Under the pieces are notes generated by a model that worked only from the letters and a program-made list of their open reading frames with translations, was not told where the DNA came from and did not search any database. Below are positions 3,001-42,619 of a stretch of 64,000 nt of DNA, piece by piece (position 1 is the first letter of the stretch; each line of letters starts with the position of its first letter). The stretch spans positions 11,432 through 75,431 of the forward strand of contig CAZECJ010000002.1 of NCBI GenBank assembly GCA_964510645.1, in the 5' to 3' direction. The stretch is from an uncultured Verrucomicrobiota bacterium. Lineage in GTDB: Bacteria; Verrucomicrobiota; Kiritimatiellia; CAIQIC01; Lenti-01. The position numbers were made by a program, and so were the translations under genes.

Positions 3001-3221
3001 ATGGCTTCGTCATGCGCTGGAAGCGCCGCATCCGCCGCGCCGACGTCGAATATCGCTTGTTCCTGTCGCACGATCTGGAAACCTGGTCGGACGATCCGGC
3101 TCAGCTGGAAGAAGTCGGCACGGAGCCCGATCTCGACGGCGTGATGGAAACCGTGCGCACCCGCATCAAGCGCACGGACGCGGAACGCACCTATCTGGGC
3201 ATCAAGGCCAAGAAGAAGTAA
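3..3221 (+). CDS. Peptidase C25 (gingipain-like) family surface protein with SdrD B-like repeat; 5'-partial
   Basis: The frame is open to the window start. The N-end carries 'DRDGIQDSGETN' (SdrD B-like/Cna-type repeat). The C-half has C25 hallmarks: 'NRIDYLVVVSRAL', a His-Gly motif 'IHYTGHGG' and a Cys motif 'VVAALSCLVG'. Long colinear identical stretches are shared with the downstream paralog ('GFFVYRVDPETGAET', 'WFLSETNRIDYLV', 'APWMVVLAGNG', 'YNLLGDPALRIA'). Confidence 0.75.
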   Translation: MWFDVDRDGIQDSGETNFIANVPVSLMTTNGVAVTSTWTSADGVYLFANVLPGTYYVRFDLTNVTAYVTLAPANQGGDGAVDSDVIGGGTRNYAWTTNFTVSGGQTNLDLDLGLMTLKATRADLAEVWGEWKDGEGRVGWRTSAEWNTAGFFVYRVDPETGAETPLNEMPVPSAFEAAGAVYELADPAARAGGGGTYRLEELELSGGTMDLGTHAVAFAGEPAAAKAARAEIRTARAIRSAKPKAAPKADGPSSVLKVFVRHEGLYGVALQAIAAGMGRTLEDVQALAAAERFSLYAQGSPVPTIYDEARGRLVFRGQGLRGRYARDNAYLISAGDGRTMPRREPGATDGQTVFPATVRFEEDRNVFDSPTVPLEDYFYWDYVIAGTNAASLKDFPIDLTGAAGDVSLKVRVMGWSSATNDPDHRAEFRFNGTTVGAAIFDGQESVEAEVSVPASLVSNGMNVLSVKGVLQAGVKSSAFVVDWIEATFERELVPLSGTAHVAANGASAVSAAAFAAPLALALDADGNPTWIADENGGLPGKAWSVSPENMRYAVVEAESLPLLDPEPAAADAWFLSETNRIDYLVVVSRALAAAAQELADYRAGQGLRVGVAVFEEICDLMADGVRTPEAIPELLAYAEGIWAEAPWMVVLAGNGSYDYFGTLGSEVNHLPPMLVQTAEGLFAADELLADSGGDELPDVAIGRLPALTAEELAAMIAKVKAYEAGFGQNWQGQIVFASDTNDAAAGRFAAANENLASLVGGKHAADVVDLNVTALTPARNKLMSYFQSGAGMIHYTGHGGVANWSAKGLLKATDVAAMNNPNQPPVVAALSCLVGRYEAPGVNSLGELLMRKADGGAAAVWGPSGLSRNDPAVELGAAFYRAVLQDGAGTLGRAVLRARRSLAADLFKQDTFGVYNLLGDPALRIANNAGGHPADETFAQWRWQRFAPAELADAETSGATDANFRDYALDGGYDIVAELPEFGYPSPVVDETRPRADDGDGFVMRWKRRIRRADVEYRLFLSHDLETWSDDPAQLEEVGTEPDLDGVMETVRTRIKRTDAERTYLGIKAKKK

Positions 3222-3250: not shown

Positions 3251-3269
3251 TTTTCCACACTGTGGAAAA
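3251..3269. repeat. Single copy of the 19-bp palindrome family: TTTTCCACaCTGTGGAAAA
   Basis: A perfect 9+1+9 palindrome read directly from the sequence. It lies 30 nt after the stop of CDS 3..3221 and 383 nt upstream of ATG 3652. Confidence 0.85.
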
Positions 3270-3651
3270 TCAGTCCCCGCTCCCGTAACGGCGTTGCCTA
3301 AGGCGGGCCGGCAGCCTCGCCCCATGAAGCGGCAAGCATAGCGGCGTCGTGCCGACGCTTTCCAAAAACATCTATCGCTTGGCTGGCGTCAGATGCGTTT
3401 GCCCGGGGTGGGTTACCCCCCATAGTCCCGGTCCGGGGGGGGGAGTAGGGTTTGTTGGGTGCAGTGGGTATCCATTCTCCCCGCCCCCTCTGGCAAACCG
3501 GGGGGAGAAAATGCGGACCTGCTTGGATCTTTGAATCGCAACCATAAAGCACGAGAAACAAATGAAGCCGGATCGATCCATCGAAGTAGACGGAAAATCG
3601 CCGCCGGCATGTTCATGGAGGTCGGCTTGGAATGGGGCGAATCGGATTTCC

Positions 3652-6600
3652 ATGGGACTGCTCTGGGCGGTCGCGATGGTTTTGTCGCTTCAAGAAGCCC
3701 CCGCGCAGATGGTCGATCTGGGTTCCGCCTCCGGGTTTGCCGTTCTGGCCGGCGCCGGGATCACCATCGGCGCTTCGGGCACGACCACGATCGCCGGGGA
3801 TATCGGGTCGTATCCCACCGCGACCATCACGGGCACGGAAAATCTGGACTTGGACGGGACCAACCACGGGGGCGATGCGGTCACGCAGGCCGCCAAAATC
3901 GATCTGGCCACGGCGTATGCCGATGCCGCCGGCCGCACCCCCACCACGACGTATCCGCCGATCTATGATCTGGGAGGACAGACCCTCGGCCCCGGCGTCT
4001 ACGACGATCCCAGTTCATTCGGGATCACCGGCATCCTGACGCTGGATGCCGGCGGCGACCCGGATGCGGTTTGGATCTTCCAGGCCGGGTCCACGCTCAT
4101 CACGGCCTCGGGCAGCCAGGTGGTGTTGATCAATGGCGCGCAGGCCGGCCGCGTTTTCTGGCAAGTGGGCACGTCGGCGACGCTCGGAACGGGCACGGAC
4201 TTCGCGGGAACTCTCTTGGCCTCCGCATCCATCACGCTGGCGGCCGGCGCATCGGTGGGGGGAAGCCTGTTGGCTCTGAATGGCGCCGTCACGTTGGACG
4301 ACAATGCGATCGCGCGGAGCGCCGACCTCGCCGTTCTCGGCGACCGGGCGTGGTTCGACGCCGACCGCGACGGCATTCAGGATGCAGGCGAGACCAACGG
4401 GGTTACCGGCGTGCCCGTGGCGCTGCTGGACGTCGATTCGAACGTGGTGGCTGCGACCACTACCGATGCCGGAGGCCACTACCTGTTCGCGAACCTGGCC
4501 GCGGGCGGCTATCGGGTGCGGTTCGACCTCTCCACGGTCACCACGAATGTAATCATCAGTTCCGCCGACCAGGGCGGCGACGACGCTCTCGACAGCGATG
4601 CGACCACCGGCGATACGGGCGGCTACGTCGGCACGGAACTCGTCTCCATCGGCGGGAGCGAGACCAACCGGAGCGTCGACCTGGGCCTGCGGGTGCGCGG
4701 CACGACCCGCGCGTCCCTCGCCGAAGTCTGGGGCGAGTGGAGCGGCGGCGCAGGGCGCGTCGTTTGGCAGACGAGTTCGGAGTGGGGAACGGCGGGATTC
4801 TTCGTCTACCGCGTCGATCCGGAGACGGGCGCGGAAACGCGCCTGAACGACGTGCTGGTGGCGTCGGCGTTCCGCGAGGCCGGCTCGGTCTACGAGCTGG
4901 AAGATCCGGCACCCCGGGAAGGCGGTGCGGCGACCTATCGGATCGAGGAAATCGAGCTGTCGGGCGGTTCGCTGGATCTGGGTACTCACGAGGTGGCATT
5001 TGCCGCGGCGCGGCCCCGGGCCAAAGCCGCGAAGGCGACGCTGTCGAAGGCGCTGCTGGCGCTGCCCAAGCTGGCGGGGCCGTCGCCGATCCTGAAAGTG
5101 CTCGTGCGCGACGAAGGCCTCTACGGCGTGGGGCTGCAAGCCATCGCCGAGGGGATGGGAACCGCGCTGGCGGACGCGCAGGCCCTGGCGGAGACGGAGT
5201 CACTGGAAATTTCAGAGCGGGGTACGCCGGTGCCGGTGCTCTATGACGCGGCGCGCGCGCGGCTCGTGTTCCATGGCGAGCCGACGGACGACTGGTACAC
5301 GCGTGACAACGCCTATTTGATTTCGGAAGGCGCGGGGCTCCCGATGCCGCGGCGCGAGCCCGGCGCGTCCTCCGGCGAATCGGTCTTTCCGGCGCAGGTG
5401 CGATTCGAACTGGATCGGTATCCGTTCGACATCGCCACGACCCGGCCCGAGGACTTCTACTACTGGGACTATGTCATCAGCGGTGCGACCAACGCGACTT
5501 CGCTGCGGGACTTTCCGCTGGATCTTGCGGGCGCGGCCGTCGCCGTCGCGCTGAAGGTGCGCCTGATGGGCTGGTCGAGCACGACCAACAACCCCGACCA
5601 CTTGGCGGAATTCCGTTTCAATGGAACCCGCGTGGGTTTGGTCTCCTTCGACGGGCAGGATTCCATCGAGACCGAGGTGTCCGTGCCCGTCGCGCTGGTT
5701 TCGAATGGCGCGAACGTGCTTTCCGTGAAGGGCGTGCTGCAGCCCGGACGCAGCCACAGCTATTTCGTGGTGGACTGGATCGAGGCGTCGTTCGCGCGCG
5801 CGCTGGTGCCGCGGGCCGGCACGGCGCACTTCGCGGCCGGCGGCGCGGCGGCGGTTTCGGCGGCGGCGTTTGCCGCTCCGTTGGCGCTGGCCCTGGACGG
5901 GGAGGGGCATCCGACGTGGATCGCAGATGAAAACGGCGAGCTGCCGGCCAAGTCGTGGACGGCGGCGGAAGCCGACAGGCGCTTCGCGGTCGTCGAGTCG
6001 GCTTCCGTTCCGATGCTGGTACCGGAATCGGTGAACGCCGATCCGTGGTTCCTGTCGGAAACGAACCGCATCGATTACCTTGTGCTCACGTCGCGCGCGC
6101 TGGAACCGGCGGCGCAGGAGCTGGCGGACTATCGCTCCGCTCAAGGGTTGCGCGTCGGCGTGGCGACCTTCGAAGACGTCTGCGACGGGATGGCCGGCGG
6201 CCTGCGCACGCCGGAAGCGATTCCGGAGCTGCTGGCCTATGCGGCCGCGACCTGGGCGGAAGCCCCGTGGATGGTGGTGCTGGCGGGCAACGGGCACTAC
6301 GACTATCTGGGCGCGCTGAGCAACGAGGTGAACCATGTGCCCCCGCTGATGCTCCAGACCCTCGCGGGGCTCTTCGCGGCGGACGGCTTGCTGGCGGACG
6401 CCACGGGAGACGGGGTGCCGGACGTCGCGATCGGCCGCCTGCCGGCGCGGACCGCGGCGGAGCTGACCGCGATGATCGCGAAGATTAGGGCCTACGAGGC
6501 TGCCTTTGGTTCGGCTTGGCAGAACGAGTTCGTCCTGGCGGCCGACGTCGCCGATGCGGCGGGCGACTTCTCGACGGCGAACGCGATCTTCGCCGCATTG

Positions 6601-7521
6601 GCGACGGCTCCGCATGCGGTGGTCGAGCGCATCGACCTGGACACGCAGGCGATCGCCTCGGCGCGCACGAACCTGATGAACCGGTTCAAGGCCGGAGCGG
6701 GCTTCATCCATTACACGGGCCATGGCGGAGTCAACAGCCTCAGCGCGCTCGGACTGCTGAAAGCGGCGGACGTCCAAGCGATGACCAACGTCCGCGCGCC
6801 GGTGGTGGTGACGCTGAGTTGCCTCGTCGGCCGCTTCGAAGCTCCGGCCGTGGACAGCCTGGGCGAATTGCTGATGCGCCAAACGCACGGCGGGGCGACG
6901 GCGGTCTGGAGTCCTTCGGGAATGTCCCTCAATCCGCCGGCGACGGAACTGGCCGAGGCGTTCTATCGCGCCGTCCTGCAGGAAGGTTCCGGTACGCTGG
7001 GGCTGGCGATCCTGCGGGCGCGCCGCGCGAGGCAGGCCAACTTCTTCACCCAGGACACCCTCGCCATCTACAACCTGCTGGGCGATCCGGCGCTGCGCAT
7101 CGCCGGCAACGTGGGCGGGCATTCCTCCGATGAAAGCTTCGCGCAATGGCGCTGGCAGCGGTTTTCACCGGAAGAACTGGCCGACCCTCAAACCAGCGGC
7201 GCGACGACGAACATCTTCTTCGACTACGCGATGGACGGTGGATACGAGGTGCTGGCCGAACGGCCCGAATTCGGCTTCGAGTTGCCGGAAGACGACGGGC
7301 CCGGATTCATCTTGCGCTGGAAGCGCCGGATCCTGCGCGCGGACGTCGAGTACCGCTTGTATGTTTCAGATGATCTGATACATTGGGAAGCAGAACCCGC
7401 CGACTTGGAGACCGTTGGCGTGGAGCCGGATGTGGATGGCGTGATGGAGACCGTTCGCACGCGGGTGGACCGCCCGCTGGCCGCGCGCGTTTTCGTGGTC
7501 GTCCGGGCCCGGAAAAAGTAG
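3652..7521 (+). CDS. Surface protein: DUF3494/ice-binding-like beta-helix + SdrD B-like repeat + peptidase C25 domain
   Basis: A signal-like 'MGLLWAVAMVLSLQEAPAQ' starts at ATG 3652; the ORF-track start 3562 is less likely. 'LGSASGFAVLAGAGITIGASGTTTIAGDIGS...FAGTLLASASITLAAGASVGGSLLALNGAVTL' is the DUF3494/ice-binding-like pattern. It is followed by 'DRDGIQDAGETN' and C25 motifs 'IHYTGHGG' and 'VVVTLSCLVG'. Confidence 0.75.
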   Translation: MGLLWAVAMVLSLQEAPAQMVDLGSASGFAVLAGAGITIGASGTTTIAGDIGSYPTATITGTENLDLDGTNHGGDAVTQAAKIDLATAYADAAGRTPTTTYPPIYDLGGQTLGPGVYDDPSSFGITGILTLDAGGDPDAVWIFQAGSTLITASGSQVVLINGAQAGRVFWQVGTSATLGTGTDFAGTLLASASITLAAGASVGGSLLALNGAVTLDDNAIARSADLAVLGDRAWFDADRDGIQDAGETNGVTGVPVALLDVDSNVVAATTTDAGGHYLFANLAAGGYRVRFDLSTVTTNVIISSADQGGDDALDSDATTGDTGGYVGTELVSIGGSETNRSVDLGLRVRGTTRASLAEVWGEWSGGAGRVVWQTSSEWGTAGFFVYRVDPETGAETRLNDVLVASAFREAGSVYELEDPAPREGGAATYRIEEIELSGGSLDLGTHEVAFAAARPRAKAAKATLSKALLALPKLAGPSPILKVLVRDEGLYGVGLQAIAEGMGTALADAQALAETESLEISERGTPVPVLYDAARARLVFHGEPTDDWYTRDNAYLISEGAGLPMPRREPGASSGESVFPAQVRFELDRYPFDIATTRPEDFYYWDYVISGATNATSLRDFPLDLAGAAVAVALKVRLMGWSSTTNNPDHLAEFRFNGTRVGLVSFDGQDSIETEVSVPVALVSNGANVLSVKGVLQPGRSHSYFVVDWIEASFARALVPRAGTAHFAAGGAAAVSAAAFAAPLALALDGEGHPTWIADENGELPAKSWTAAEADRRFAVVESASVPMLVPESVNADPWFLSETNRIDYLVLTSRALEPAAQELADYRSAQGLRVGVATFEDVCDGMAGGLRTPEAIPELLAYAAATWAEAPWMVVLAGNGHYDYLGALSNEVNHVPPLMLQTLAGLFAADGLLADATGDGVPDVAIGRLPARTAAELTAMIAKIRAYEAAFGSAWQNEFVLAADVADAAGDFSTANAIFAALATAPHAVVERIDLDTQAIASARTNLMNRFKAGAGFIHYTGHGGVNSLSALGLLKAADVQAMTNVRAPVVVTLSCLVGRFEAPAVDSLGELLMRQTHGGATAVWSPSGMSLNPPATELAEAFYRAVLQEGSGTLGLAILRARRARQANFFTQDTLAIYNLLGDPALRIAGNVGGHSSDESFAQWRWQRFSPEELADPQTSGATTNIFFDYAMDGGYEVLAERPEFGFELPEDDGPGFILRWKRRILRADVEYRLYVSDDLIHWEAEPADLETVGVEPDVDGVMETVRTRVDRPLAARVFVVVRARKK

Positions 7522-7578: not shown

Positions 7579-7651
7579 GTTTTCCATACCATGGAAAACG
7601 ATTCCGGTTTTTTTCCGCCCTGTGGAAAAAGATTTTCCACGCCGTGGAAAA
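7579..7651. repeat. Array of three copies of the TTTTCCAC-N3-GTGGAAAA palindrome (candidate operator array)
   Basis: The copies are GTTTTCCATaccATGGAAAAC (7579..7599), TTTTTCCGCCCTGTGGAAAAA (7610..7630) and TTTTCCACgccGTGGAAAA (7633..7651). Centre-to-centre spacings are 31 and 22 bp. The array ends 57 nt upstream of the PqqD ATG. Confidence 0.85.
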
Positions 7652-7707: not shown

Positions 7708-7977
7708 ATGAAGGGCCGGGTGGTGCTGCGCCGAATCGGCGAGGACCGCCTGCTGGTGCCGGTATCGGGCGGCGCCGCGCGCGAGAACTGCGTGTTTCCC
7801 CTCAACGAAACGGGCGAATTCATCTGGAATTATCTGACGCAGGGCCGGACGCTGGACGAAACGGCGGCGGCGGTGGTCGCCGCGTTCGCCGTGGCTTTGG
7901 AAGAAGCGCTGCGCGATTGCCGCGGGTTCGCCGAAAAACTGGTGTCGCATGGGTTGCTCGAGGAGGGGCCGCCGTGA
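7708..7977 (+). CDS. PqqD-family peptide chaperone (RiPP recognition element)
   Basis: The 89-aa product 'MKGRVVLRRIGEDRLLVPVSG...FPLNETGEFIWNYLTQGRTLDETAAAVVAAF...FAEKLVSHGLL' has the typical PqqD layout. Its stop overlaps the next start (GTGA at 7974). ATG 7708 was chosen because the longer ORF-track start 7591 lies inside the palindrome array. Confidence 0.75.
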   Translation: MKGRVVLRRIGEDRLLVPVSGGAARENCVFPLNETGEFIWNYLTQGRTLDETAAAVVAAFAVALEEALRDCRGFAEKLVSHGLLEEGPP

Positions 7978-9077
7978 GCGGTTCGCCCGCCGAGATGGAG
8001 AGGACCGCCGCCCGCTGGACGGTCGATTTCCGCGCCCGAGCCGCGCAGGCGCGCCGGCCGATTTCCGCCACGCTGGAACTGACGCGGCGCTGCAACCTGC
8101 ATTGCGCCCACTGCTACCTCGGCGATCAGGCCGAACAGCACCGGCGGCGCGACCGCGAACTCGGTGCGGAGGCCGTGAAGGCGGCGCTCTCCGAATGGGC
8201 CGAGGCCGGCTGCCTGTACGTGCTGATCACGGGCGGCGAACCGCTGTTGCGCCCCGACTTCGCCGATGTCTACCGCCATGCGCGCGGGCTGGGGCTGGTG
8301 GTGACGGTCTTTTCCAATGGGACGCTCGTGGACGATGAAACCCTCGCGCTGTTTCGCGAACTGCCGCCGCGCCGGGTGGAGATCAGCCTCTACGGCGCGA
8401 CGGCGGAAGTCCACGACGCCGCCACCGGCGTGCCGGGTTCGCATGCGCGCGCCTGGGCCGGCATCCGCCGCCTGCACGCGGCGGGCGTGCGCGTCGGACT
8501 CAAGACCCTGCTGATGACGACCAATCTCCGCGAGTTCGCGGCCATGGAACGCCAAGCCCGGGATCTGGGCGTCCGCTTCCGCCACGATGCGGCGATCACC
8601 CCCTGCCTGCACGGTGGATCGCGCGCGCCGCTGGCGCTGCGCGTGTCGCCGGAAGAAGCGGTGCGGGCGGACATGGCGACGGCCGAGCGCCGTTCGACGT
8701 GGCGCGAGTCGATCGAGCAAGCCGCGGCGCGGCCCGAGGGGGATCGCCTCTATGGCTGTTCGGCCGGGCAGACCTTTTTCCACTGCGATCCGTTTGGCGG
8801 CCTGTCGCCGTGCCTCATGGCGGAGAGCGATCGCTGCGTTCCCGGCGGCCGCGCGTTCCGGGAAATCTGGAGCCGCGAGTTGGCGGCCATCCGCGGCCGG
8901 AAACGCACGCGGGCCGGCGGCAGCTTTTCCGGCGTTTTGCGCGGCGCGTGCGCGCATTGTCCGGCCTTCAACCGGGTGGAAACCGGTGACGAGGAAATGG
9001 AATCCGCTTACATGAAACAAACGACCCTGTTGCGTTACCAAGCGGCGATGACCCCCCCTGACGGAGAATGCCTATGA
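7974..9077 (+). CDS. Radical SAM peptide maturase (PqqE-like) with Cys-rich SPASM/twitch-like C-terminus
   Basis: 'LELTRRCNLHCAHCY' carries the CxxxCxxC motif and 'ITGGEPLLRPD' the GGE motif. The C-terminal Cys cluster is 'CSAGQTFFHCDPFGGLSPC...CAHCPAF'. GTG 7974 overlaps the PqqD stop; ATG 7995 is an alternative start. Confidence 0.85.
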   Translation: MSGSPAEMERTAARWTVDFRARAAQARRPISATLELTRRCNLHCAHCYLGDQAEQHRRRDRELGAEAVKAALSEWAEAGCLYVLITGGEPLLRPDFADVYRHARGLGLVVTVFSNGTLVDDETLALFRELPPRRVEISLYGATAEVHDAATGVPGSHARAWAGIRRLHAAGVRVGLKTLLMTTNLREFAAMERQARDLGVRFRHDAAITPCLHGGSRAPLALRVSPEEAVRADMATAERRSTWRESIEQAAARPEGDRLYGCSAGQTFFHCDPFGGLSPCLMAESDRCVPGGRAFREIWSRELAAIRGRKRTRAGGSFSGVLRGACAHCPAFNRVETGDEEMESAYMKQTTLLRYQAAMTPPDGECL

Positions 9078-9256
9078 ATCCCCAACCCGAACGTCAACCC
9101 TCCCCGAACGAAGACCGGCCCGTCCGCCGCCCGTACGAGAAGCCCGCGATCCAGCGGGTGGACCTGGCGCTGGCGGAAACCTTGGGCAGCGGCTGCAAAC
9201 TGGACGGCGAATGCAACATGCCGCCCATCAACATCCGGGACGAGGTAGGCTCCTGA
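9074..9256 (+). CDS. Candidate precursor peptide (60 aa), PqqA-like leader, two Cys, C-terminal Ser
   Basis: Its ATG overlaps the rSAM stop (ATGA); ATG 9068 is an alternative start. Third-position GC is high, like the neighbouring genes. The sequence is MNPQPERQPSPNEDRPVRRPYEKPAIQRVDLALAETLGSGCKLDGECNMPPINIRDEVGS. Confidence 0.5.
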   Translation: MNPQPERQPSPNEDRPVRRPYEKPAIQRVDLALAETLGSGCKLDGECNMPPINIRDEVGS

Positions 9257-10170
9257 GGTCGTCCGTCCATCTGGACCTCGGTCCGCTGCGCATCCAGCTG
9301 CGGACGGATGGAACGGGGCCGGTGCGCTATTCCGCGCCGGCCTATGCGGGTTTTTTCTCGCCGGCTGCGCCGCGTCCCGGCGCCGATCCGCTGGCGGCGC
9401 TGTCCGTGGACGTCGCTTTCGGAAAATCGTCCGTGCCGGCCCGCCCGCCGTTTTGGCAGATCGGTCCGAGCTGGGCGGTTTGGGAAGAGGGGGCCGATCT
9501 GCTTTGCCTCGCCGGGTTCCATGCGCCGGACTCTGCGTTTTTCGGTTGCCGGGTGGCGCGCGACTTGTCGCGCGCGGAGCTCGCGGTGGATCCGCAATTG
9601 CCCGGTTCAGTTCCCGGCCAGATGGAAGCGCCGTTGCGCTATCCGCTGGACCAGGTGGTGTCCTGGGGCATGCTGTCGCGCATCGGCGGAGCCCTGCTGC
9701 ATGCGGCGGTGGCGGTGAAAGACGGCGCCGGGTACGTGTTCGCCGGCCGCAGCGGCGCGGGCAAATCCACGCTGTCGGGATTGTGCCATGCGGAAGGCTG
9801 GCGGATCTTGAACGACGACCGCGCGCTGGTGTTTCGTCGCGGCGGCGCGTGGCGCGTGGCCGGCACGCCGTGGCATGGGTCGGGCCGCTTCGCCGAAGCG
9901 GCGGACATGCCGCTGGGCGGAATCTATTTATTGCAGCAAGCGTCCGGGAACCGATTGGAGCTGGTATCGGGTTCGCAGGCGCGGTTGGCCTTGCTGGACG
10001 TGGCGGCGGTGCCGTGGTTCGAGGATTCCTGGGCACAGGGAATCCTAGATGGGTTGGATCGGCTGGTGGGGGATGTCGAAACCCGCCGGTTCCATTTCAC
10101 GAAAACGTCCGCGGCGGTACGGGCCTTGACGATTCGTCAAGACGCCCTGCGGGCGGAAGCGTGTGCATGA
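9211..10170 (+). CDS. HPr kinase-related (HprK-like) P-loop kinase
   Basis: 'LHAAVAVKDGAGYVFAGRSGAGKSTLSGLCHAEGWRILNDDRALV' matches the HPr kinase C-terminal fold pattern (H..v...G.g....G.SG.GKS......G..l..DD). The start is uncertain: ATG 9211 overlaps the peptide ORF by 46 nt, and GTG 9322 is an alternative. Confidence 0.7.
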   Translation: MQHAAHQHPGRGRLLRSSVHLDLGPLRIQLRTDGTGPVRYSAPAYAGFFSPAAPRPGADPLAALSVDVAFGKSSVPARPPFWQIGPSWAVWEEGADLLCLAGFHAPDSAFFGCRVARDLSRAELAVDPQLPGSVPGQMEAPLRYPLDQVVSWGMLSRIGGALLHAAVAVKDGAGYVFAGRSGAGKSTLSGLCHAEGWRILNDDRALVFRRGGAWRVAGTPWHGSGRFAEAADMPLGGIYLLQQASGNRLELVSGSQARLALLDVAAVPWFEDSWAQGILDGLDRLVGDVETRRFHFTKTSAAVRALTIRQDALRAEACA

Positions 10171-10589
10171 GGCGATTGACGCAACTTCCAGATTGCGTGT
10201 CGGATAGGACGCAAGGCATAGCGGGCCAACCCGGCCCAGCGGGCGAACCGGCTGTTCAGACGGTGGACGCGTCCGTCGCGGCGCACGCTTTCGGCCACAC
10301 CGAGGACGTCTTGGGCCGGAATCCAGTCGCCCCCGGTCACGGCGGCATCGCCGATCGTGTAAACCCGCTTTGTTCGTTTTTCGTTAAAAACGCATCGGTG
10401 GACTGTTATTCTTCCATTAATCTTATATAGTATAACGCTACCGCAAAATATCGCGCTGGAGGCCAACGGCTGGATGAAGATGCTCTCTCCGTCGCGGATG
10501 GTTGGAGTCATGCTCGGCCCGAAGGCCTGGAATGAAATGGGCGTGTGTTGTCGGAGCAGCGAGGTGATGATGTCCTGAATCTCGGGCAT
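10137..10589 (-). CDS. S24/S26-family serine peptidase (signal-peptidase/LexA-like fold), 150 aa
   Basis: This is the C-terminal 150 codons of minus ORF 10137..12503, starting at ATG 10589. It carries 'FGPSMTPTIRDGESIFIQPL...VILYKINGRITVHR', a Ser/Lys dyad pattern. The gene is visibly AT-richer than its surroundings. Its 3' end overlaps the HprK-like gene by 34 nt (convergent). Confidence 0.65.
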   Translation of the reverse strand: MPEIQDIITSLLRQHTPISFQAFGPSMTPTIRDGESIFIQPLASSAIFCGSVILYKINGRITVHRCVFNEKRTKRVYTIGDAAVTGGDWIPAQDVLGVAESVRRDGRVHRLNSRFARWAGLARYALRPIRHAIWKLRQSPHAHASARRAS

Positions 10590-10607: not shown

Positions 10608-12521
10608 ATGAAAAAGGTAGTACAAGCCATGAACAACACAAGCATCGTTTTTCGGGCGGGTCGTTTGGCTCTCGCGGCGTTGGCGAGTTGTCTGTTGTCC
10701 TTGCCCGCGCAGGCCGCCAAACCCACGGGCGAGGCCGTCGTGGCCGCCCTGACCGGCCGGGCCCAGGCGCGCGTGTTTACCGCGCCCATCCACGAAGGGC
10801 GAACGGAAATCAAAGATTTGTTCGAAGGCGCTTCCGTCGGCGAGAACGTCCGCGTAACGACCGGAAAGGACGGGCGCCTGTGCCTGGTGTGTTCGCCGGG
10901 AGCCATCCTGTGCGTCGCGCCGAATACCGAATTCATCATCCAGCAGTTGCGCCACACGGCGGATGGTTTGCCGAAAAGCGAAGAAGACCTGATCCGCCGC
11001 ATCCACGTCCAGCTGCTCGGGGGCCGCCTCCGCGTGCAAGCGGGGACGCCCATGCCGACGCTGGACATCCAGATCGAGACGCCGGCCGGAACGGTCGCGG
11101 CCCAAGGCGGCTCGTTCGTGGTGGCGCAGGGCGGCCAAGGCCGCTGGAACGTCTTGAGCGAAGCCTATGAATTGGCGGTCACGCCCCGCAACGGGACCCG
11201 CGAACAACTCAAGGCGGGCGAGGCCGCCTGGATGGCCGCCGATGGAGAAGACCGGAGCGAATTCCAACCCGAAAGCGCCGCAGAAAACGCCGAGCTCTAC
11301 CAGTTCGAGCTCTGCAATGCCTTTTTCGCGGATTTGGAGCCTTTCATCCACCACGAGCGGCCGTTCGACCGGGAGGGGCTCGGAGATTATATCGGAACGA
11401 CCGCGCCGTTCTTCGATCTGGATTCCGGCGCGCTGGTGACGGATGCCAGTCCCACGATCCGGCCCTCGGTGTCCTCGGTCCGGCCTTCCGCCATGCCTCG
11501 GCCCGGAGAAGGGGCGCCCGGCGGACGCTGGGACGAGATCCGCATCTGGAAGTGGTTCGACGACGTCGGCACCGTGAAGGGCGTGAATTATATTCCCCGC
11601 ACCGCCGTCAATTCGGTCGAGATGTGGATGGCGGACACCTTCGATCCCGACACGATCGACGAGGAACTGGGCTGGGCCCACGACATCGGCTATACCAGCA
11701 TTCGCGTCCAGCTCCAGTTCGCGGTTTGGCAGGCCGATCCCGACGGATTCCTCGCTCGCGTGGACGACCTGTTCGACATCGCCGCGAAGCACGGCTTGCG
11801 CGTGGTGCCGGTGCTGTTCGACGATCTGAATCTGGCGGGCGAGCCGCCGCAGGTCGGGAAGCAGCCCGAGCCGGTTCCCGGCGAGCACAATGCCCGCTGG
11901 GTGCCCAGCCCCGGCGCCGACGCGGTGAAGGATCGCCGCCAGTGGCCCGCGCTGGAAAAATACGTGAAGGACGTGTTGGGCCAATTCAAGCGCGACCCGC
12001 GCGTCCTGTATTGGGACCTCTACAACACCGCCGGCAACGGCGGCTTGGGAGAGGACACGCTGCCGCTGCTGGACCAGACCTTCAACTGGGCGCGGGCGGT
12101 CGAGGCGTCGCAGCCGCTGGCAGTGCCTGCGTGGCGGGAATTCGGCAGCGCGATGGCCGCGCGCAAGCTCGAGCGGTCGGATCTGATCACATTCCAGAGC
12201 TTCGACAGCGCCGAGAGCATCGAGGCGCGCCTCCAGCTTTTGCGGCGCTACCAGCGCCCGATCATCTGCTCCGACTGGCTGATGCGCCAAGTGGGCAACG
12301 ACTTCAAGAAAGTGCTCCCGTTGTTTTCCGTCTACCGCGTGGGCTGGTTCAACCAAGGGCTCGTCAGCGGCAAAACCCACCGGCCCATCCAGGAGGCTCG
12401 CTATCGGGCGGAGAATGAGCCCGACGTCTGGCAGCAAGACGTGCTGCACGAGGATGGAACTCCATATGATCGGAAAGAAGTGGAGCTGATCCAAGGCTTC
12501 CACTTTCTCGAAGCTCCTTGA
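10608..12521 (+). CDS. Secreted FecR-domain + glycoside-hydrolase-like (TIM-barrel, GH5/clan GH-A-like) protein
   Basis: A signal peptide 'AALASCLLSLPAQA' is present. The FecR-like segment is 'GRAQARVFTAPIHEGRTEIKDLFEGASVGENVRVTTGKDGRLCLVCSPGAILCVAPNTEF'. The C-half, 'VKGVNYIPRTAVNSVEMW...GYTSIRVQLQF...HGLRVVPVLFDD...VLYWDLYNTAG', resembles cellulase/xylanase-type barrels. ATG 10629 is an alternative start. Confidence 0.55.
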   Translation: MKKVVQAMNNTSIVFRAGRLALAALASCLLSLPAQAAKPTGEAVVAALTGRAQARVFTAPIHEGRTEIKDLFEGASVGENVRVTTGKDGRLCLVCSPGAILCVAPNTEFIIQQLRHTADGLPKSEEDLIRRIHVQLLGGRLRVQAGTPMPTLDIQIETPAGTVAAQGGSFVVAQGGQGRWNVLSEAYELAVTPRNGTREQLKAGEAAWMAADGEDRSEFQPESAAENAELYQFELCNAFFADLEPFIHHERPFDREGLGDYIGTTAPFFDLDSGALVTDASPTIRPSVSSVRPSAMPRPGEGAPGGRWDEIRIWKWFDDVGTVKGVNYIPRTAVNSVEMWMADTFDPDTIDEELGWAHDIGYTSIRVQLQFAVWQADPDGFLARVDDLFDIAAKHGLRVVPVLFDDLNLAGEPPQVGKQPEPVPGEHNARWVPSPGADAVKDRRQWPALEKYVKDVLGQFKRDPRVLYWDLYNTAGNGGLGEDTLPLLDQTFNWARAVEASQPLAVPAWREFGSAMAARKLERSDLITFQSFDSAESIEARLQLLRRYQRPIICSDWLMRQVGNDFKKVLPLFSVYRVGWFNQGLVSGKTHRPIQEARYRAENEPDVWQQDVLHEDGTPYDRKEVELIQGFHFLEAP

Positions 12522-13798
12522 TGAAGCACGCCGTCGCCATTCTAGCCTGCCTGGCCGGTGCCGCAGTCGCGGTGCCTTCCGCCGGCTGGGCTGCGGACGA
12601 CGGCTATGCCGCCGGCTTCTTCACGCGCGGGGTCGATGCGGCGTCCTACATCGACCAGGGCGGGGCGGTCATCGATCCGTTCTACGTGCCCGCCAAGACG
12701 GGGGCGCTGCTGCCGCGCGTGAGCCTGGCGATGTCGCACGAAGACAACGTGTTTCTCGATCCGACCAATGAAACTGCCGGCACCTCGATCCAGCTGGTCC
12801 CGGGTCTGCTGGCCATCTGGGGACGCCCGGCGGGGAACCATGTCTACGCCGACTACGGCCTGATCCTTCCGGTCTACGAGAGCGAAGAGGAATTGAGCGA
12901 CCGCCCCAGCCACCTGCTGCGGCTGGGAAGCGTCTATCGCACGGGGAAAAGCCAGATCCAGGGACAAGTGGGCTATCGCCAACTGGAAGACGTGGATACG
13001 GTGGTAGGGGCACGCGTGGCCAAGCGGGACGTCTTGGGCGATCTGGGCGTCGAGCACCGGATCTCGGGCAAGTCCAGCGCGGGGCTGCAAGGCCGCGTGG
13101 AAATGCACGAATTCGACGCGGAAAACTATCTCGACTACAACCGCTATTATGGGGCGGGACGCCTGTATCACCGCGTGTCGCCCAAGAGCCAGGCCTTCGT
13201 GCAGGGCGGCCTCGGCCGCGACGATCCCCGGGAAGACGGCCCGCGCGCCGCCACCGATTTCTACGACCTGTCGCTGGGCGTGCGCGGCAAGCAGTCGCCC
13301 AAGTTCAATACGGCCGGTCGGGTGGGCTACATGTGGCGCACCTACGACGACGAGTTCCGCAACGATTTCGCGCACTGGATCGCCTCGCTGAAGGCCGAAA
13401 GCGCGCCGTTTGGCTTTACCACCTTTTCGGGCGAGCTGTATGCGGATATCCGCCCGGCCATCGACGCGGACGCGACCGACGTGGTGGACCAAGGGGTCAC
13501 GCTTGGCGCGGCGCGGCGCCTGTTCTCCGAGCGCCTGCGCGGAAACGCCTCGGCCACCTTCGGCCAGATCGACTACTCCGGCGCCAGCGCCGCGGAGGGC
13601 GGAAGCCAGGACGGGCGGACCGACCGCTACTGGGGATTTTCCGTCGGCGTGGACTGGTGGAGCAAGGAGCGCTTCTCCGTCGGCTTGGCCTATTCCTACA
13701 TGCGCCGCGACGGCAACGTGGACGGCGATCCGGAAGCGCAGGATTCGACCTCGTATGAACAAGGACGCTGGAACCTGCGCGCCAGTTGGAATTATTGA
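12521..13798 (+). CDS. Outer-membrane beta-barrel protein of polysaccharide loci
   Basis: A signal peptide 'AILACLAGAAVAVPSAGWA' is present. The sequence alternates in an amphipathic pattern rich in G/Y/R/D. The C-terminus '...RWNLRASWNY' ends in an aromatic residue, typical of OMPs. The start overlaps the previous stop (TGATG). Confidence 0.6.
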   Translation: MKHAVAILACLAGAAVAVPSAGWAADDGYAAGFFTRGVDAASYIDQGGAVIDPFYVPAKTGALLPRVSLAMSHEDNVFLDPTNETAGTSIQLVPGLLAIWGRPAGNHVYADYGLILPVYESEEELSDRPSHLLRLGSVYRTGKSQIQGQVGYRQLEDVDTVVGARVAKRDVLGDLGVEHRISGKSSAGLQGRVEMHEFDAENYLDYNRYYGAGRLYHRVSPKSQAFVQGGLGRDDPREDGPRAATDFYDLSLGVRGKQSPKFNTAGRVGYMWRTYDDEFRNDFAHWIASLKAESAPFGFTTFSGELYADIRPAIDADATDVVDQGVTLGAARRLFSERLRGNASATFGQIDYSGASAAEGGSQDGRTDRYWGFSVGVDWWSKERFSVGLAYSYMRRDGNVDGDPEAQDSTSYEQGRWNLRASWNY

Positions 13799-39645: not shown

Positions 39646-41272
39646 GCCGGAAACGGGCCGGGGCTGGGCTTGGTTGATGGTGACGCTGGCGGGGGTGTTC
39701 CCGTTCGCGTCGGACATGCTGCGCAATTTCCAGCTCTTCGCGCCGACGCAGATGGCGTGGTCCTTTGCGGCGGTACTGGCGGCGACCGGGGGGACGTATG
39801 CGTTGGCCCGGACGATTCTCCGGGGGGTCGAGGCCGCGCTGCGCCGCGCGGGCCGGCCGCCCGGGCCCCGTCTGCGGTCCGTCGTCTTCGCGCTGGCCGC
39901 GGCGCTGGTCTTCGCCGGGTTTCTCTACGATGCCAACATGACGGAGCTGCGCGTGGATTTTGGTCTGCCCCGGCTGGCGGCCGCTTCCATCGTCGTGGCG
40001 TTGTTCGCCGTCTACGGGGCCGTCGCAGAGCGGCTCGGCGCGAAACGAACGTGCCTCTTGCTGCTCGCGCTGCTGGCGTTCCGGTCGGTCCGGGCGGGGT
40101 GCGAGATCTCGGGCGCGCTCTTGCGGGGGCACGCCCTGATGTCCCCCGAGGAAATCCGCGTCTATCAAAACGTGAAACTGTCCCGCACGCCGAACGTCTA
40201 CTTCATCTGCCTGGAGTCGTATCACGACTTCGGCGACATGGAGGTGCTGTACGGGCTCGACAACTCGGCGTTCCGCGGATTCCTGGAAACCAACGGATTC
40301 GCGGTGGCGGAGGGCATCTGCGCCAACGACTGGCACACGATGTCGAGCCTGCATTCCTTTTTCCGGATGGGGCATCACTACGGGTCGGGCACGTTCGGCA
40401 ACCACGATTCCCTGCATGCGCGCGGATTCCTCTCGGGCAGCGGAACCTACTACAACCCCGTGTTGAACGTCCTGAAGCGCAACGGCTACGCCATCGTCTA
40501 TCTGCTGCCGTCCGACTACTACTATCGCCCGGGGACCGGTCTGGTGGACGTGTCGCTGCTGGATCGCTCGTGGCCGCTGGCGCCGCTCAAGGTCAGCCTG
40601 CCGCGGTTCGTCGGCCGCGAACCGATCACCTACGTCGAGGACTATGAGCGGAAGCTGGCCGACGTCCTCTCCGCCTGGCCCGGCGACCGGCCCGCGTTTT
40701 TCTTCGCAAAGCTGGGCGCGGAGCATGTTCCCAAGCACTACGATTGCCGGACGGACCGGGCCGAATTCGTCGAGCAGTATAAAAAATCGGTTGCGGACGG
40801 CAATCCCCGGATCGAGTCGCTCTGCCGCCGGATCATCGCGAAAGATCCCGGCGGGATCATCGTGTTGGCCGGCGATCACGGCGCGCAAAGCTACCAGTCG
40901 AAGGAACGCCGGTTCCAGGACGTCATGCGCGAAGACGGCATTCCGGCGGAGCGCATCGTGCGGGACCTGCACGGCGTGCTCTTGGCCATCCGCTGGGGCG
41001 AAGGGCTGTCGCCGGAACCCTATCCCTTCCGGAGCCTGGCCAACGCGATGCGGTTCGTGTTGTACCGGCTGAGCGGCGACGAGGCGCTGCGGAAAACGGC
41101 CGTCCACGATTCGTCCTACGTGCTCGAAATGGACGGCCTGCTTTACCAGACCACGGACGATGGGCGACCGCTCTCCGAATGGAAAGCCGTGCCCCGGAGT
41201 CCTCCGGAACGCGGACCGGACGATCAGGGCCGGCGGTACAGCGCGCCCCGCACCGGCCGGACAAGCCAATAG
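39635..41272 (+). CDS. Membrane-anchored alkaline-phosphatase/sulfatase-superfamily transferase (LtaS/phosphoglycerol-transferase-like)
   Basis: N-terminal TM segments are followed by 'TPNVYFICLESYHDF' (LtaS-like 'lES' metal/nucleophile region) and 'IIVLAGDHGAQ'. The start is GTG 39635 or ATG 39677. Confidence 0.55.
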   Translation: MGAKPETGRGWAWLMVTLAGVFPFASDMLRNFQLFAPTQMAWSFAAVLAATGGTYALARTILRGVEAALRRAGRPPGPRLRSVVFALAAALVFAGFLYDANMTELRVDFGLPRLAAASIVVALFAVYGAVAERLGAKRTCLLLLALLAFRSVRAGCEISGALLRGHALMSPEEIRVYQNVKLSRTPNVYFICLESYHDFGDMEVLYGLDNSAFRGFLETNGFAVAEGICANDWHTMSSLHSFFRMGHHYGSGTFGNHDSLHARGFLSGSGTYYNPVLNVLKRNGYAIVYLLPSDYYYRPGTGLVDVSLLDRSWPLAPLKVSLPRFVGREPITYVEDYERKLADVLSAWPGDRPAFFFAKLGAEHVPKHYDCRTDRAEFVEQYKKSVADGNPRIESLCRRIIAKDPGGIIVLAGDHGAQSYQSKERRFQDVMREDGIPAERIVRDLHGVLLAIRWGEGLSPEPYPFRSLANAMRFVLYRLSGDEALRKTAVHDSSYVLEMDGLLYQTTDDGRPLSEWKAVPRSPPERGPDDQGRRYSAPRTGRTSQ

Positions 41273-42282
41273 AGCCCGCGCAGCGCGGGCGGGAGCGCGA
41301 ACCACCGGAAATCGCCGTCGCCGGGCGTGAGGATCCGCCGCAGGCGATAGAAGAGGATTTCCGGCCGGGCCATGAAAGTCTCGTGGAAGCGGCGCAATTC
41401 GCCGCCATCCATCGCCCGCGCGTTTCCGCGGAGCCGAGCGACGGCTTCGGCGACGACGTCGGGCGGGGCGGCGTCGGGGCCCAGGCCGGGGCCGAAGATC
41501 GCGTCGGCGACGGCGCCGCCGGCCGCCAAGGCGTTTTCCGCGAAGGGGCATTTCTTCGCCAGCGCCCGGGCTTCCGGAACAATCCCCGGATGCCGCGCCA
41601 ACAGGCCGGCGACGTCCACGAGCCACGCGATCCGTTCCCAGCCGTGCCAAACCGCATGCAGGCAACCCAGCAGCAGATGCAGGGCCGGCGTCGGCGCGCG
41701 GATTTCGCCGCCTTCCAGTTCCAGGGTTGCGAACGAATCTTGCCAGCGCCGGTTGCCGGGTCGAGGCCACGGATATTGCGGGGGAAAGAAGCGGCGTTTG
41801 ACTTCCACCGTGAATCCCTCCGGATGGCGGAACGCCACGCCCCATCCATAGTGCCACAGATGCGCGCGCCGCCACGGATCTGCGATTTCCGGGGCATAGC
41901 CCGCTTCCTCCATTCCGGCGGCGAAAGCCGGATAATCGCGGCCGGCGCAAACGAAGTCGAGATCGTCGAAGCTCCGCAGGCCGGGTTCGGGCCAAGCCTG
42001 CGCCGCCAGCGCGGGGCCTTTCACCAGCGCCAGCGTCCGCAGGCGGGGCGCCAGCCGGGCGAAGAGGCGGACCGCTTCGTGCGCATGGCGCGCCGCATGC
42101 CGGGCCTGTCCGTAGGCCGCGGTCCGCAGCGCCGCGCCGGGATCCGGCAGGCCCGCCTGCAACAGTCCCAACAGCCGGTGCCGCCGCGCCCACGGAAACA
42201 GCCGCTCCCGCGCCTCCGGCGCCAGAACGGCGCCGGCGGCGTCCGGCAAGCCGTGCAGCGCGCGGAAGGCCTGCCGGGCCAT
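41224..42282 (-). CDS. Uncharacterised nucleotidyltransferase family protein (NTP_transf_5-like)
   Basis: 'LLGLLQAGL...VRLFARLAPRLRTLALVKGPALAAQAWPEPGLRSFDDLDFVCAGRDYPAFAAGMEEAGY...VEVKRRFFPP...LHLLLGCLHAVWHGWERIAWLVDVAGLL' is the typical layout of this family (vKG..la...Y....R...DiDlLV......a...l...Gy). ATG 42282 was chosen because ORF-track start 42378 lies in the palindrome array. The 3' end overlaps the LtaS-like gene by 49 nt. Confidence 0.7.
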   Translation of the reverse strand: MARQAFRALHGLPDAAGAVLAPEARERLFPWARRHRLLGLLQAGLPDPGAALRTAAYGQARHAARHAHEAVRLFARLAPRLRTLALVKGPALAAQAWPEPGLRSFDDLDFVCAGRDYPAFAAGMEEAGYAPEIADPWRRAHLWHYGWGVAFRHPEGFTVEVKRRFFPPQYPWPRPGNRRWQDSFATLELEGGEIRAPTPALHLLLGCLHAVWHGWERIAWLVDVAGLLARHPGIVPEARALAKKCPFAENALAAGGAVADAIFGPGLGPDAAPPDVVAEAVARLRGNARAMDGGELRRFHETFMARPEILFYRLRRILTPGDGDFRWFALPPALRGLYWLVRPVRGALYRRP

Positions 42283-42347: not shown

Positions 42348-42419
42348 TTTTTCCACGCTGTGGAAAAAAGTTTTCCACGCTATGTAAAAAATCACCAAAA
42401 AATTACGTAGCATGGAAAA
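42348..42419. repeat. Array of 2-3 copies of the TTTTCCAC-N3-GTGGAAAA palindrome
   Basis: The copies are TTTTTCCACgctGTGGAAAAA (42348..42368, perfect 9-nt arms), TTTTCCACgctATGTAAAA (42371..42389) and the degenerate AATTACGTAgcATGGAAAA (42401..42419). Centre spacings are 22 and 30 bp. The array starts 66 nt upstream of the nucleotidyltransferase start. Confidence 0.85.
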
Positions 42420-42542: not shown

Positions 42543-42619
42543 GCGTCCGTAGCTCAATTGGACAGAGCTTCTGACTTCGGATCAGAAGGTTACAGGTTCG
42601 AGTCCTGTCGGACGCGCCA
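42543..42619 (+). tRNA. tRNA-Arg (anticodon TCG), CCA encoded
   Basis: The acceptor stem is GCGTCCG/CGGACGC and the D arm GCTC-AATTGGAC-AGAGC. The anticodon arm is TCTGA-CTTCGGA-TCAGA with TCG at positions 34-36. The T arm is ACAGG-TTCGAGT-CCTGT, followed by discriminator G and CCA. Confidence 0.92.

Follow-up and report, generated by a model that had tools for sequence, protein, structure and literature searches.

A radical SAM, HprK-like kinase and signal peptidase cassette of Kiritimatiellia as a candidate pathway for a modified ribosomal peptide

The linear polyphosphorylated peptides (LPPs) of Bacillota and the phosphorylated lasso peptides are among the described systems closest to a five-gene cassette at positions 7708 to 10589 of the DNA analysed here, a stretch of 64,000 nucleotides (the window) from contig CAZECJ010000002.1 of an uncultured Kiritimatiellia bacterium. 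LPPs are made by the LppA/B/K/S/N/D system, which according to its first description is confined to Bacillota (Popov et al., Nat Commun 2026, PMC13381572). LppB, a discrete recognition element (RRE) for a peptide synthesized by the ribosome and modified after translation (RiPP), binds a YxxP leader, and the HprK-like kinase LppK polyphosphorylates core Ser3 of LppA (PMC13381572). The archaeal-type signal peptidase LppS cuts the leader after ...E-T, and does so only when the RRE is present (PMC13381572). Also in the core set are a nucleoside triphosphate (NTP) transferase and an exporter, and the LPP clusters lie in capsule or polysaccharide loci (PMC13381572). Among the phosphorylated lasso peptides, pseudomycoidin is phosphorylated on its C-terminal Ser by the HprK-like PsmK, and an 'uncharacterised nucleotidyltransferase', PsmN, is needed to add a hexose to the phosphate (PMC6993621).

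The Kiritimatiellia cassette encodes a PqqD-family RRE, a radical S-adenosylmethionine (radical SAM, rSAM) enzyme, a short peptide, an HprK-like kinase and a signal-peptidase-like protein. With a probability of roughly 0.6, we read it as a RiPP biosynthetic operon whose precursor gene lies at 9074-9256 and whose product would be cross-linked, phosphorylated and trimmed, and may be associated with the envelope or with exopolysaccharide. An earlier reading of this DNA, made from the sequence alone, had proposed a peptide-maturation pathway, and the conserved precursor and the enzyme families support that proposal. The same sequence-only reading had been unable to assign the combination of enzymes to any described class. 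This no longer holds for the trio of RRE, HprK-like kinase and signal peptidase I with a nucleotidyltransferase, which was described in 2026 as the LPP system (PMC13381572), whereas no account of the full combination, a cassette joining rSAM, PqqD, HprK-like and signal-peptidase genes, was found in the searchable literature, outside which most subscription journals lie. All of the modules are of known types. What is new relative to LPPs is the radical SAM enzyme, the Cys-rich core, the phylogenetic range and a link to C25 peptidases. Overall, the cassette resembles an LPP/phosphorylated-lasso tailoring system grafted onto a sactipeptide-like rSAM step, and is a member of no described class.

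The cassette and its peptide family

The list of open reading frames (ORFs) bore out all five genes of the sequence-only reading, with their overlaps and motifs. On the forward strand, the gene for a discrete 89-aa RRE of the PqqD family (7708..7977) is followed by that for a 367-aa radical SAM peptide maturase whose domain for a single auxiliary cluster is Twitch-like (7974..9077), by a 60-codon ORF for the 60-aa precursor peptide (9074..9256) and by the gene for a 319-aa P-loop kinase of the HprK/PEPCK fold and the ScmC family, PF27840 (9211..10170). The reverse strand of 10137..10589 encodes a 150-aa soluble homolog of archaeal/endoplasmic reticulum (ER)-type signal peptidase I (S26B, SipW/Sec11-like). 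As had been noted before, the PqqD stop codon and the GTG start of the rSAM gene overlap as GTGA (7974-7977), the rSAM TGA and the small-ORF ATG overlap as ATGA (9074-9077), and the peptidase gene is convergent to the kinase gene, with a 34-nt overlap at the kinase 3' end. Additionally, GGAG lies 7 nt 5' of the small-ORF ATG, and the kinase ORF begins at ATG 9211 inside the small ORF, so that it overlaps the peptide gene by 46 nt. The GC content at third codon positions (GC3) of the small ORF is 0.82, comparable to host genes. Rfam, promoter and terminator scans returned nothing further, and no product of the five attains an equivalog cut-off.

A database protein of 257 aa from a relative (P0173) joins, in this order, the rSAM C-terminus, the peptide leader and the kinase N-terminus. 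This is probably a frameshifted or miscalled gene, and the read-through reflects the close packing of the rSAM, peptide and kinase genes.

The small ORF has no family match in Pfam or NCBIfam scans. A homologous peptide is encoded on the rSAM strand in 41 of 41 cassette loci, and the 40 distinct peptides have a common architecture, in which a variable N-terminus is followed by basic residues, the motif Y-x-x-P-x-[LIV]-x-x-[VI]-x-L and an acidic patch. A Cys stands exactly 20 residues past the Tyr (Y+20) in 39 of the 40, usually within G-C-K; 27 cores hold three Cys and 10 hold two, and 34 of the peptides end in Ser and 3 in Thr, mostly as G-S. For a second, independent sample, a profile made from close relatives of the window peptide alone was searched against 1.84 billion cluster representatives. 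The search returned 86 peptide clusters, nearly all of 45-72 aa, whose peptides are all unnamed or 'hypothetical'; among the 85 cluster sequences read, the last residue is Ser in 79 and Thr in 5, and a Cys stands at +20 in 77. Conservation across phyla of so specific an architecture indicates that the small ORF is a real gene. The proposal of a peptide pathway had turned on a conserved small ORF 3' of the rSAM gene, and such an ORF is present in every homologous locus (41 loci in about 12 phyla, together with the 85 cluster representatives).

Within the window peptide, residues 1-17 form the variable N-terminus, R18-T36 the putative RRE-binding leader (Y21xxP24xI26 ... E35-T36) and L37-S60 the predicted core, LGSGCKLDGECNMPPINIRDEVGS, with C41, C47 and the C-terminal S60. 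The cleavage site is placed by analogy with LppA, and would follow T36. Y, P, I/L, E-T and S all stand at the offsets of the LPP motif YxxPxVLxHQxIxFETxxS. The leader Y, P and L/I also have the exact spacing of lasso leaders. In relatives at 68-92% identity, residues 1-17 are free to vary and R18-S60, the core included, is almost invariant, unlike the hypervariable cores of bacteriocins. Across phyla the G-C-K and G-S ends of the core are conserved, and the middle spans 14 to 59 residues. An Asp or Glu at core position 7-9 occurs in the Kiritimatiellia peptides only.

Over 1,500 relatives of the rSAM protein were found, and those close to it are named Kiritimatiellia. Gene order is kept in five metagenomic contigs at 56-70% identity, where a giant SdrD/CLIPPER/Peptidase_C25 protein is followed by PqqD, rSAM, an ORF of 52-61 aa, a ScmC protein (PF27840), the small peptidase, a ~630-aa FecR-like protein, a ~430-aa protein and polysaccharide export genes. 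A wider scan, at one genome per species, gave 80 loci. The cassette was called by tblastn with the window proteins and a hidden Markov model (HMM) of the peptide (L numbers designate loci). The cassette is present in 41 loci from about 12 phyla, with representatives in Kiritimatiellia, Verrucomicrobiia, Acidobacteriota, Nitrospirota, Deltaproteobacteria, Myxococcota, Bdellovibrionales, Omnitrophota, Aerophobetes, Cloacimonadales, Fermentibacteria, Chloroflexi and Elusimicrobia. The peptide and the rSAM gene were detected in all 41 loci, an HprK-like gene in 40 (the sole locus without it is cut by a contig end), PqqD in 36, where it adjoins the rSAM gene, the peptidase in 25 and a C25 gene in 18; these counts are lower bounds set by search sensitivity, as a Pfam scan recovered a peptidase in L012 that tblastn had missed. 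The peptidase gene is convergent in Kiritimatiellia only and co-directional elsewhere. All-vs-all clustering of six-frame ORFs from 87 loci was contaminated by antisense ORFs of high-GC genomes, and only clusters of C25, ABC-2 and Nitrospiraceae-specific genes were retained from it.

The Nitrospiraceae loci (L027, L031 and L035-L047) form a distinct sub-family. Their precursors are longer (ILSACS..., ending ...DSGxRPS) and at times occur in two copies (L031), and at least L044 has a second rSAM gene. A methyltransferase, an extracytoplasmic function (ECF)-type sigma factor and a 365-aa protein are kept as neighbours.

Enzymes of the cassette and their relatives

The rSAM protein matches PF04055 with 89 bits and carries the motifs CNLHCAHC and GGEPLL that had been read from the sequence, with C40, C44 and C47 (CxxxCxxC) invariant. 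The C-terminal Cys cluster noted at the same time is also present, but it is a four-Cys, Twitch-like cluster rather than a seven-Cys SPASM cluster. Only four C-terminal Cys are invariant (C262-X12-G-X4-C280 ... C326-X2-C329), and Pfam SPASM does not match the protein. We take this four-Cys pattern to resemble that of BtrN. A profile of the family searched against PDB sequences placed SkfB first (6efn, E 3.6e-24, reaching into the Twitch domain) and PqqE next. Similarly, the AF2 model (pLDDT 92.6) matched SkfB, PqqE, SuiB, BlsE, MoaA, CteB and anSME in Foldseek. The NCBIfam scores lie under their cut-offs for MftC (101 vs 265 bits), PqqE (74.6 vs 381) and SkfB (63.7 vs 300), and MftC is the second-best NCBIfam match and the sole near-full-length alignment (residues 28-338). 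Membership in a non-RiPP family, which the sequence-only reading had raised as a doubt, was checked: the enzyme groups with peptide-modifying SPASM/Twitch proteins, SkfB, PqqE, SuiB and CteB being the top matches, and no non-RiPP equivalog cut-off is reached.

SkfB, of the sporulation killing factor (Skf) system, is therefore the closest solved rSAM enzyme by sequence profile, and by fold its match has E 4e-15; it shares the Twitch-type auxiliary cluster and a Cys in the substrate core. It differs in that identity is 24% and the TM-score about 0.5, and in that the RRE is a separate protein here; furthermore, the Skf system is without a kinase and without a signal-peptidase-type protease. The likeness to sactipeptide and ranthipeptide systems in general lies in a Twitch-type rSAM enzyme with an RRE, and SkfB, CteB and SuiB are among the top matches.

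The PqqD protein matches Pfam PF05402 with 48.1 bits against a gathering score of 23.4. Among NCBIfam models it scores best against NF033530, the chaperone of PqqD type from lasso systems (E 1e-7, below the cut-off), and its closest solved structure is the lasso RRE TbiB1 (5v1u, E 0.0018); it is no closer to PDB 9x8z, a 'PqqD family protein' (E 0.69), than to TbiB1.

An HPr-kinase-fold P-loop protein with the motif GRSGAGKST had been recognized from the sequence, and profile matches agree with this (NCBIfam HprK_rel_A, E 5e-10; ScmC, E 1e-9). A protein 100% identical to the window kinase (P0234) has a precomputed match to PF27840 ScmC, as do 120 of the 120 kinase relatives listed, one of which also matches Hpr_kinase_C. 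Walker A (G179..K185..T187) and N201-D202-D203 are invariant. The latter is the counterpart of the DD metal site whose mutation inactivates PsmK (PMC6993621). Foldseek matched the AF2 model (pLDDT 91.4) only to PEPCK and HprK/P structures, and residues 1-11 are predicted to be disordered. The protein is predicted to be a peptide Ser kinase.

A small Ser peptidase with the motif GPSMTPT had likewise been proposed, and the motif is present. The S24 label given to it does not stand: the type is archaeal/ER signal peptidase I (Ser/His) and not LexA-like S24. PF00717 matches with 22.5 bits, just under its gathering score of 23.3, and TIGR02228 with E 8e-8 and 32 bits against a cut-off of 51.85. The orthologous domain in L014 exceeds that cut-off (65.7 bits) and also matches the SipW model, and the best PDB matches of the window peptidase are SEC11C and SEC11A. 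The motifs G-x-S-M-x-P, H-R and G-D are invariant across phyla. No N-terminal transmembrane (TM) helix is predicted, and a peptidase without a membrane anchor fits a cytoplasmic leader peptidase. By analogy with LppS, we predict that the protein acts as an RRE-dependent leader peptidase. An AT-rich stretch lies inside the peptidase gene, especially at 10360-10440, and the start codon is 18 nt from a divergent FecR-like gene (ATG 10608).

The LPP system is matched here by a discrete lasso-type RRE beside the precursor (48 bits to PF05402, 36/41 loci), by a YxxPx[LVI] leader with E-T 14-15 residues past the Tyr (Y21, P24, I26, E35 and T36 in the window), by an HprK-like kinase (family matches, Walker A and DD, HprK/PEPCK fold), by a signal peptidase I of the archaeal type with invariant Ser/His/Asp motifs and by a setting in a polysaccharide locus. 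LPP clusters also carry an 'uncharacterised' NTP transferase; here a PF14907 gene lies 31 kb off, and LppN is compared with it by description. In contrast to LPPs, a conserved rSAM/Twitch enzyme is found in 41 of 41 loci, while radical SAM is nowhere mentioned in PMC13381572. Further differences are the Cys-rich core with its fixed Cys at Y+20 and C-terminal Ser/Thr, the MsbA-like LPP exporter, which was not found in the window, the hosts, which are Kiritimatiellia and about 11 other, mostly Gram-negative, phyla, and the linkage to C25/PorU-like proteins. A linear product is not to be expected, given that no locus lacks the rSAM enzyme.

The phosphorylated lasso peptides paeninodin and pseudomycoidin share with the cassette an RRE, a Y/WxxP leader, an HprK-like kinase with the DD site, a C-terminal Ser and a nucleotidyltransferase acting on the phosphate, PsmN again being compared by description. 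They differ in their macrolactam synthetase and B2 protease, in place of which the cassette has an rSAM enzyme and a signal-peptidase-type leader peptidase. Among the window ORFs to which Pfam was applied, neither a PF00733-type, Asn-synthetase-like cyclase nor a transglutaminase-like B2 protease turned up, and the earlier verdict that this is not a lasso pathway is upheld. The same is true of the verdict against PQQ biosynthesis, as PqqB and PqqC were not found among these ORFs and PqqE scores 74.6 bits against 381. Mycofactocin (MftA/B/C/E/F) and PQQ (PqqA/D/E) resemble the cassette in a PqqD-type chaperone and an rSAM enzyme acting on a small peptide with conserved terminal residues, in a peptidase acting on the peptide and, for mycofactocin, in glycosyl decoration. 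The differences are that the peptides here lack a GVY or E-x3-Y motif and end in G-S, that the other Mft and Pqq genes were not found in the window and that MftC and PqqE lie far under their cut-offs.

The SynChlorMet (SCM) cassette of TIGRFAMs/NCBIfam (TIGR04248-04251), which is defined bioinformatically and is not known to have been characterised, sets an HprK-like ScmC, a PqqD-like ScmD and two rSAM/SPASM proteins, ScmE and ScmF, together. The same three protein types stand side by side in the Kiritimatiellia cassette, and its kinase belongs to PF27840 ScmC. The scores, however, are 38 bits against a cut-off of 125 for ScmC, 18 against 100 for ScmD, 65 against 400 for ScmE and 76 against 400 for ScmF, and most loci have one rSAM gene rather than two. 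To our knowledge, the peptidase, the nucleotidyltransferase and the precursor family are outside the SCM definition.

Genomic setting, proposed maturation and competing explanations

A PF14907 gene (NTP_transf_5, 'uncharacterised nucleotidyltransferase', 102 bits) lies on the reverse strand at 41224..42282, with its ATG at 42282, at the far end of a polysaccharide locus. In Omnitrophota the domain is fused to the peptidase (L014, 3892-5973, S24+GNAT+NTP_transf_5), and a fusion of NTP_transf_5 with the peptidase also occurs in Kiritimatiellia (L018, 8149-9768, reverse strand). In L016 and L017 a PF14907 gene sits next to the cassette, and L037 also carries one. Because of these fusions and adjacencies we count the nucleotidyltransferase into the system, as a likely sixth component that would modify the phosphorylated Ser, by analogy with PsmN and LppN. 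A fusion of the peptidase with GNAT is found in Fermentibacteria (L021, 3149-4081), and the GNAT domains in the fusions suggest acetylation as a further tailoring step in some lineages.

The window nucleotidyltransferase is tied to the cassette by the fusions in other phyla and by a shared palindrome. Three 19-nt palindromes of the type TTTTCCAC-N3-GTGGAAAA stand at 7580..7651 (at 7580, 7611 and 7633; spacing 31 and 22 nt) and end 57 nt before the PqqD ATG. Two copies, 22 nt apart, stand at 42349..42389, 67 nt upstream of the NTP_transf_5 ATG, so that spacing and start-codon distance are alike at the two places. The palindrome unit is TTTTCC-N7-GGAAAA, a search with a 3-nt spacer having given no match, and it has 11 matches in the window against 0.10 expected. 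Arrays occur at the same place before PqqD in three other species, with 8 copies in L003-5, 5 in L007 and 3 in L086, and the gene upstream of the L086 array differs and is divergent. The palindromes are a candidate operator, or another cis element, of the cassette, and may couple it to the nucleotidyltransferase. A single palindrome lies at 3251-3269, after the first of two C25 genes. The matches at 31837 and 42724 were set aside as probably due to chance, being in coding sequence and without the CAC/GTG core.

Upstream of the cassette, a giant secreted protein with Ice_binding, SdrD_B and Peptidase_C25 domains is encoded at 3562..7521 (forward strand; Peptidase_C25, 233 bits; the Ice_binding-like domain N-terminal and the C25 domain C-terminal), preceded by a tandem paralog with a C-terminal PorU-like Peptidase_C25 domain (3-3221), which extends beyond the window start. 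The His/Cys motifs of these C25 proteins are intact, and the best NCBIfam match is the type IX secretion system (T9SS) sortase PorU, NF033707 (174 bits against a cut-off of 420). Same-strand C25-domain genes stand beside the cassette in 18 of 41 loci, including those of six other phyla (Acidobacteriota, Nitrospirota, Deltaproteobacteria, Anaerolineae, Bdellovibrionales and Omnitrophota), and the stop codon of C25 and the start of PqqD overlap in L001 and L002. Lys-specific cleavage by C25 after G-C-K was considered and dropped, as loci without C25 keep the motif equally well and some loci that have C25 lack it.

Downstream, a polysaccharide locus of ~29 kb (12.5 to 41 kb) abuts the cassette. 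Its genes encode an EpsL-like porin, Wza, a GNVR/AAA_31 co-polymerase, an ABC-2/Wzt transporter, an epimerase, about nine glycosyltransferases and a Glycos_transf_4 initiating enzyme. Directly after the cassette come genes for a secreted FecR-domain protein with a long C-terminal region (10608-12521) and for the EpsL-like outer-membrane barrel (12518-13798). FecR-domain and EpsL-like genes are found 3' of the cassette in all close Kiritimatiellia loci and are absent in other phyla.

From the observed gene content, family and fold assignments, catalytic motifs, co-conservation across phyla and peptide architecture, we infer the chemical steps of a pathway, their order, a cleavage site and a biological role. 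The PqqD protein would bind the leader through the lasso-type motif Y21-x-x-P24-x-I26 and present the peptide to the other enzymes. The Twitch rSAM enzyme would then modify the core at or from Cys41 (Y+20, in G-C-K). In view of the likeness to SkfB and of the uneven Cys count, the most likely chemistry is at least one Cys-to-carbon thioether of the sactipeptide or ranthipeptide kind. The HprK-fold kinase would phosphorylate a Ser, most likely Ser60, as in paeninodin and pseudomycoidin; an alternative site is Ser39 (Y+18), the counterpart of the LppA phosphosite. The PF14907 nucleotidyltransferase would extend the phosphate with a sugar or a nucleotide-derived group. Finally, the signal-peptidase-I-like enzyme would cut the leader in an RRE-dependent manner, probably after E35-T36. 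The PorU-like C25 proteins may process or use the product, which is more likely a conserved peptide associated with the cell envelope or exopolysaccharide than an arms-race bacteriocin. A bolder version, to which we give little credence, is that the mature peptide is a building block of the cell surface rather than a free natural product, its C-terminal Ser being phosphorylated and sugar-extended by the PF14907 enzyme so that the peptide serves as primer, cap or anchor for the exopolysaccharide of the neighbouring locus, or the peptide being conjugated through transpeptidation by the PorU-like (sortase-type) C25 domain of the giant protein next to the cassette. If true, a ribosomal, rSAM-cross-linked peptide would be a covalent component of glycan or adhesin layers in many phyla.

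The conserved ends of the core could also be read as the remains of a precursor for a cofactor or small molecule like PQQ or mycofactocin, of which only a few residues are kept, for example the Cys of G-C-K and/or the C-terminal G-S. The rSAM enzyme would cross-link or decarboxylate these residues, the peptidase would excise them, and the kinase and nucleotidyltransferase would decorate them. PqqD, rSAM and peptidase do follow PQQ/mycofactocin logic, MftC is the second-best NCBIfam match at near full length, PqqE ranks second by fold and sequence, conservation across phyla is found at the two core ends only, and the core is invariant within the clade. We consider this unlikely, however, in view of scores far under the cut-offs (MftC 101 vs 265; PqqE 74.6 vs 381), of the failure to find PqqB/C- or MftD/E/F-like genes in the window and of a second and third Cys that are widely conserved (three in 27 of 40 cores); moreover, no cofactor-using redox enzymes are conserved beside the cassette. 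Equally improbable is a secreted antimicrobial sactipeptide or ranthipeptide, a bacteriocin that the kinase and peptidase tailor and process while the C25 and polysaccharide links are coincidental. SkfB, the nearest solved rSAM relative, makes a killing factor, pairs of ABC-2 transporter genes flank the cassette in seven loci (L014, L015, L016, L024, L030, L037 and L041), and a patchy spread over many phyla fits the horizontal transfer of conflict genes. Against this, the core is near-invariant in relatives and constrained by motifs across phyla rather than hypervariable, the Kiritimatiellia loci lack an immunity gene or dedicated exporter, and the same-strand C25 linkage, at times overlapping, recurs along with polysaccharide export genes.

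A lasso pathway with genes for the cyclase and B2 protease at some other place in the genome is very unlikely, although the RRE is of the lasso type, the leader has lasso spacing (Y(-17), P(-14), L/I(-12), T(-2)), and the G/S start and the Asp at core position 7 or 9 of the Kiritimatiellia peptides would suit a macrolactam. HprK-like kinases and nucleotidyltransferases of this sort do tailor lasso peptides (PMC6993621). Yet no Asn-synthetase-like or transglutaminase-like gene was found among those ORFs of the 64-kb window that were scanned with Pfam, the Asp and T(-2) are not conserved outside Kiritimatiellia, and what is conserved in their stead is an rSAM enzyme and another leader peptidase; a macrolactam through the Asp was dropped because that residue is clade-specific. 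The least probable account, which we hold to be scarcely credible, is that there is no functional unit, the small ORF being spurious and the peptidase an unrelated neighbour. The peptidase gene does lie on the opposite strand with a GC3 of 0.68 and falls just under the Pfam threshold, and the small ORF is without a family match. Against this stand the 41 loci and 86 clusters that keep the peptide with its specific architecture, the co-directional orientation of the peptidase gene in other phyla, its fusions with the nucleotidyltransferase and the translational overlaps between the genes.

Several observations weigh against the RiPP operon that we favour. The peptidase gene is inverted, and its GC3 is atypical (0.68, with neighbours at 0.77-0.83). 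The best NCBIfam scores of the rSAM enzyme are to AhbD and MftC and not to a sactipeptide synthase, with no equivalog cut-off reached, so that a thioether is only the likeliest guess. A Ser at Y+18 is found in only about half of the peptides, and E-T at Y+14/15 is not conserved outside Kiritimatiellia; sites of cleavage and phosphorylation like those of LppA may therefore not transfer. Peptides with three Cys are not explicable by disulfides. The window nucleotidyltransferase is 31 kb from the cassette, and PsmN and LppN are likened to PF14907 by description only. The closest long relative, L086, has no C25 gene, and the only exporter found in the window is the ABC-2/Wzt transporter, of polysaccharide type and not MsbA-like. 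Finally, three palindromes at 57407-57509, spaced 22 and 62 nt, stand between the convergent ORFs 56554-57402 (forward) and 57565-59232 (reverse). A simple operator model fits these copies ill, and a role as a repetitive extragenic palindromic (REP)-like element or terminator is possible. A perfect AT-rich hairpin, tatacttgtttgtaaacaagtata, follows them at 57519-57543, and the arrangement points to either a REP-like element or a small transcript lacking annotation.

If the RiPP operon is real, it adds an rSAM branch to the toolkit of phosphorylated peptides (LPP/paeninodin-type), whose range would grow beyond Bacillota to a dozen or more phyla that are mostly uncultured. The operon would also give a first testable function to Pfam ScmC proteins and PF14907 nucleotidyltransferases outside lasso clusters. 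The fixed distance of 20 residues from the RRE motif to the first Cys and the near-universal C-terminal Ser make for sharp predictions and cheap tests. Furthermore, the C25 and polysaccharide linkage suggests a function in the envelope or biofilm rather than in antibiosis, which is relevant to the biological role of LPPs and paeninodins.

Other features of the window

A second radical SAM gene, unrelated to that of the cassette and outside it, lies on the forward strand at 51944-53764 and has a BATS domain (ThiH/HydG/BioB-like). On the reverse strand, two adjacent NERD nuclease-domain genes, a gene for a five-TRAM protein and one for a BURPS668_1122-family toxin deaminase occupy 47662-49216, 49256-51349 and 51487-52107, and form a possible conflict or toxin island unrelated to the cassette. 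A single ORF on the forward strand (45115-46854) joins an RpiB/LacAB ribose-5-phosphate isomerase domain to a full serine hydroxymethyltransferase. The sole tRNA of the window, tRNA-Arg(TCG), is encoded on the forward strand at 42543-42619, between the nucleotidyltransferase with its palindromes and a HEAT-repeat gene.

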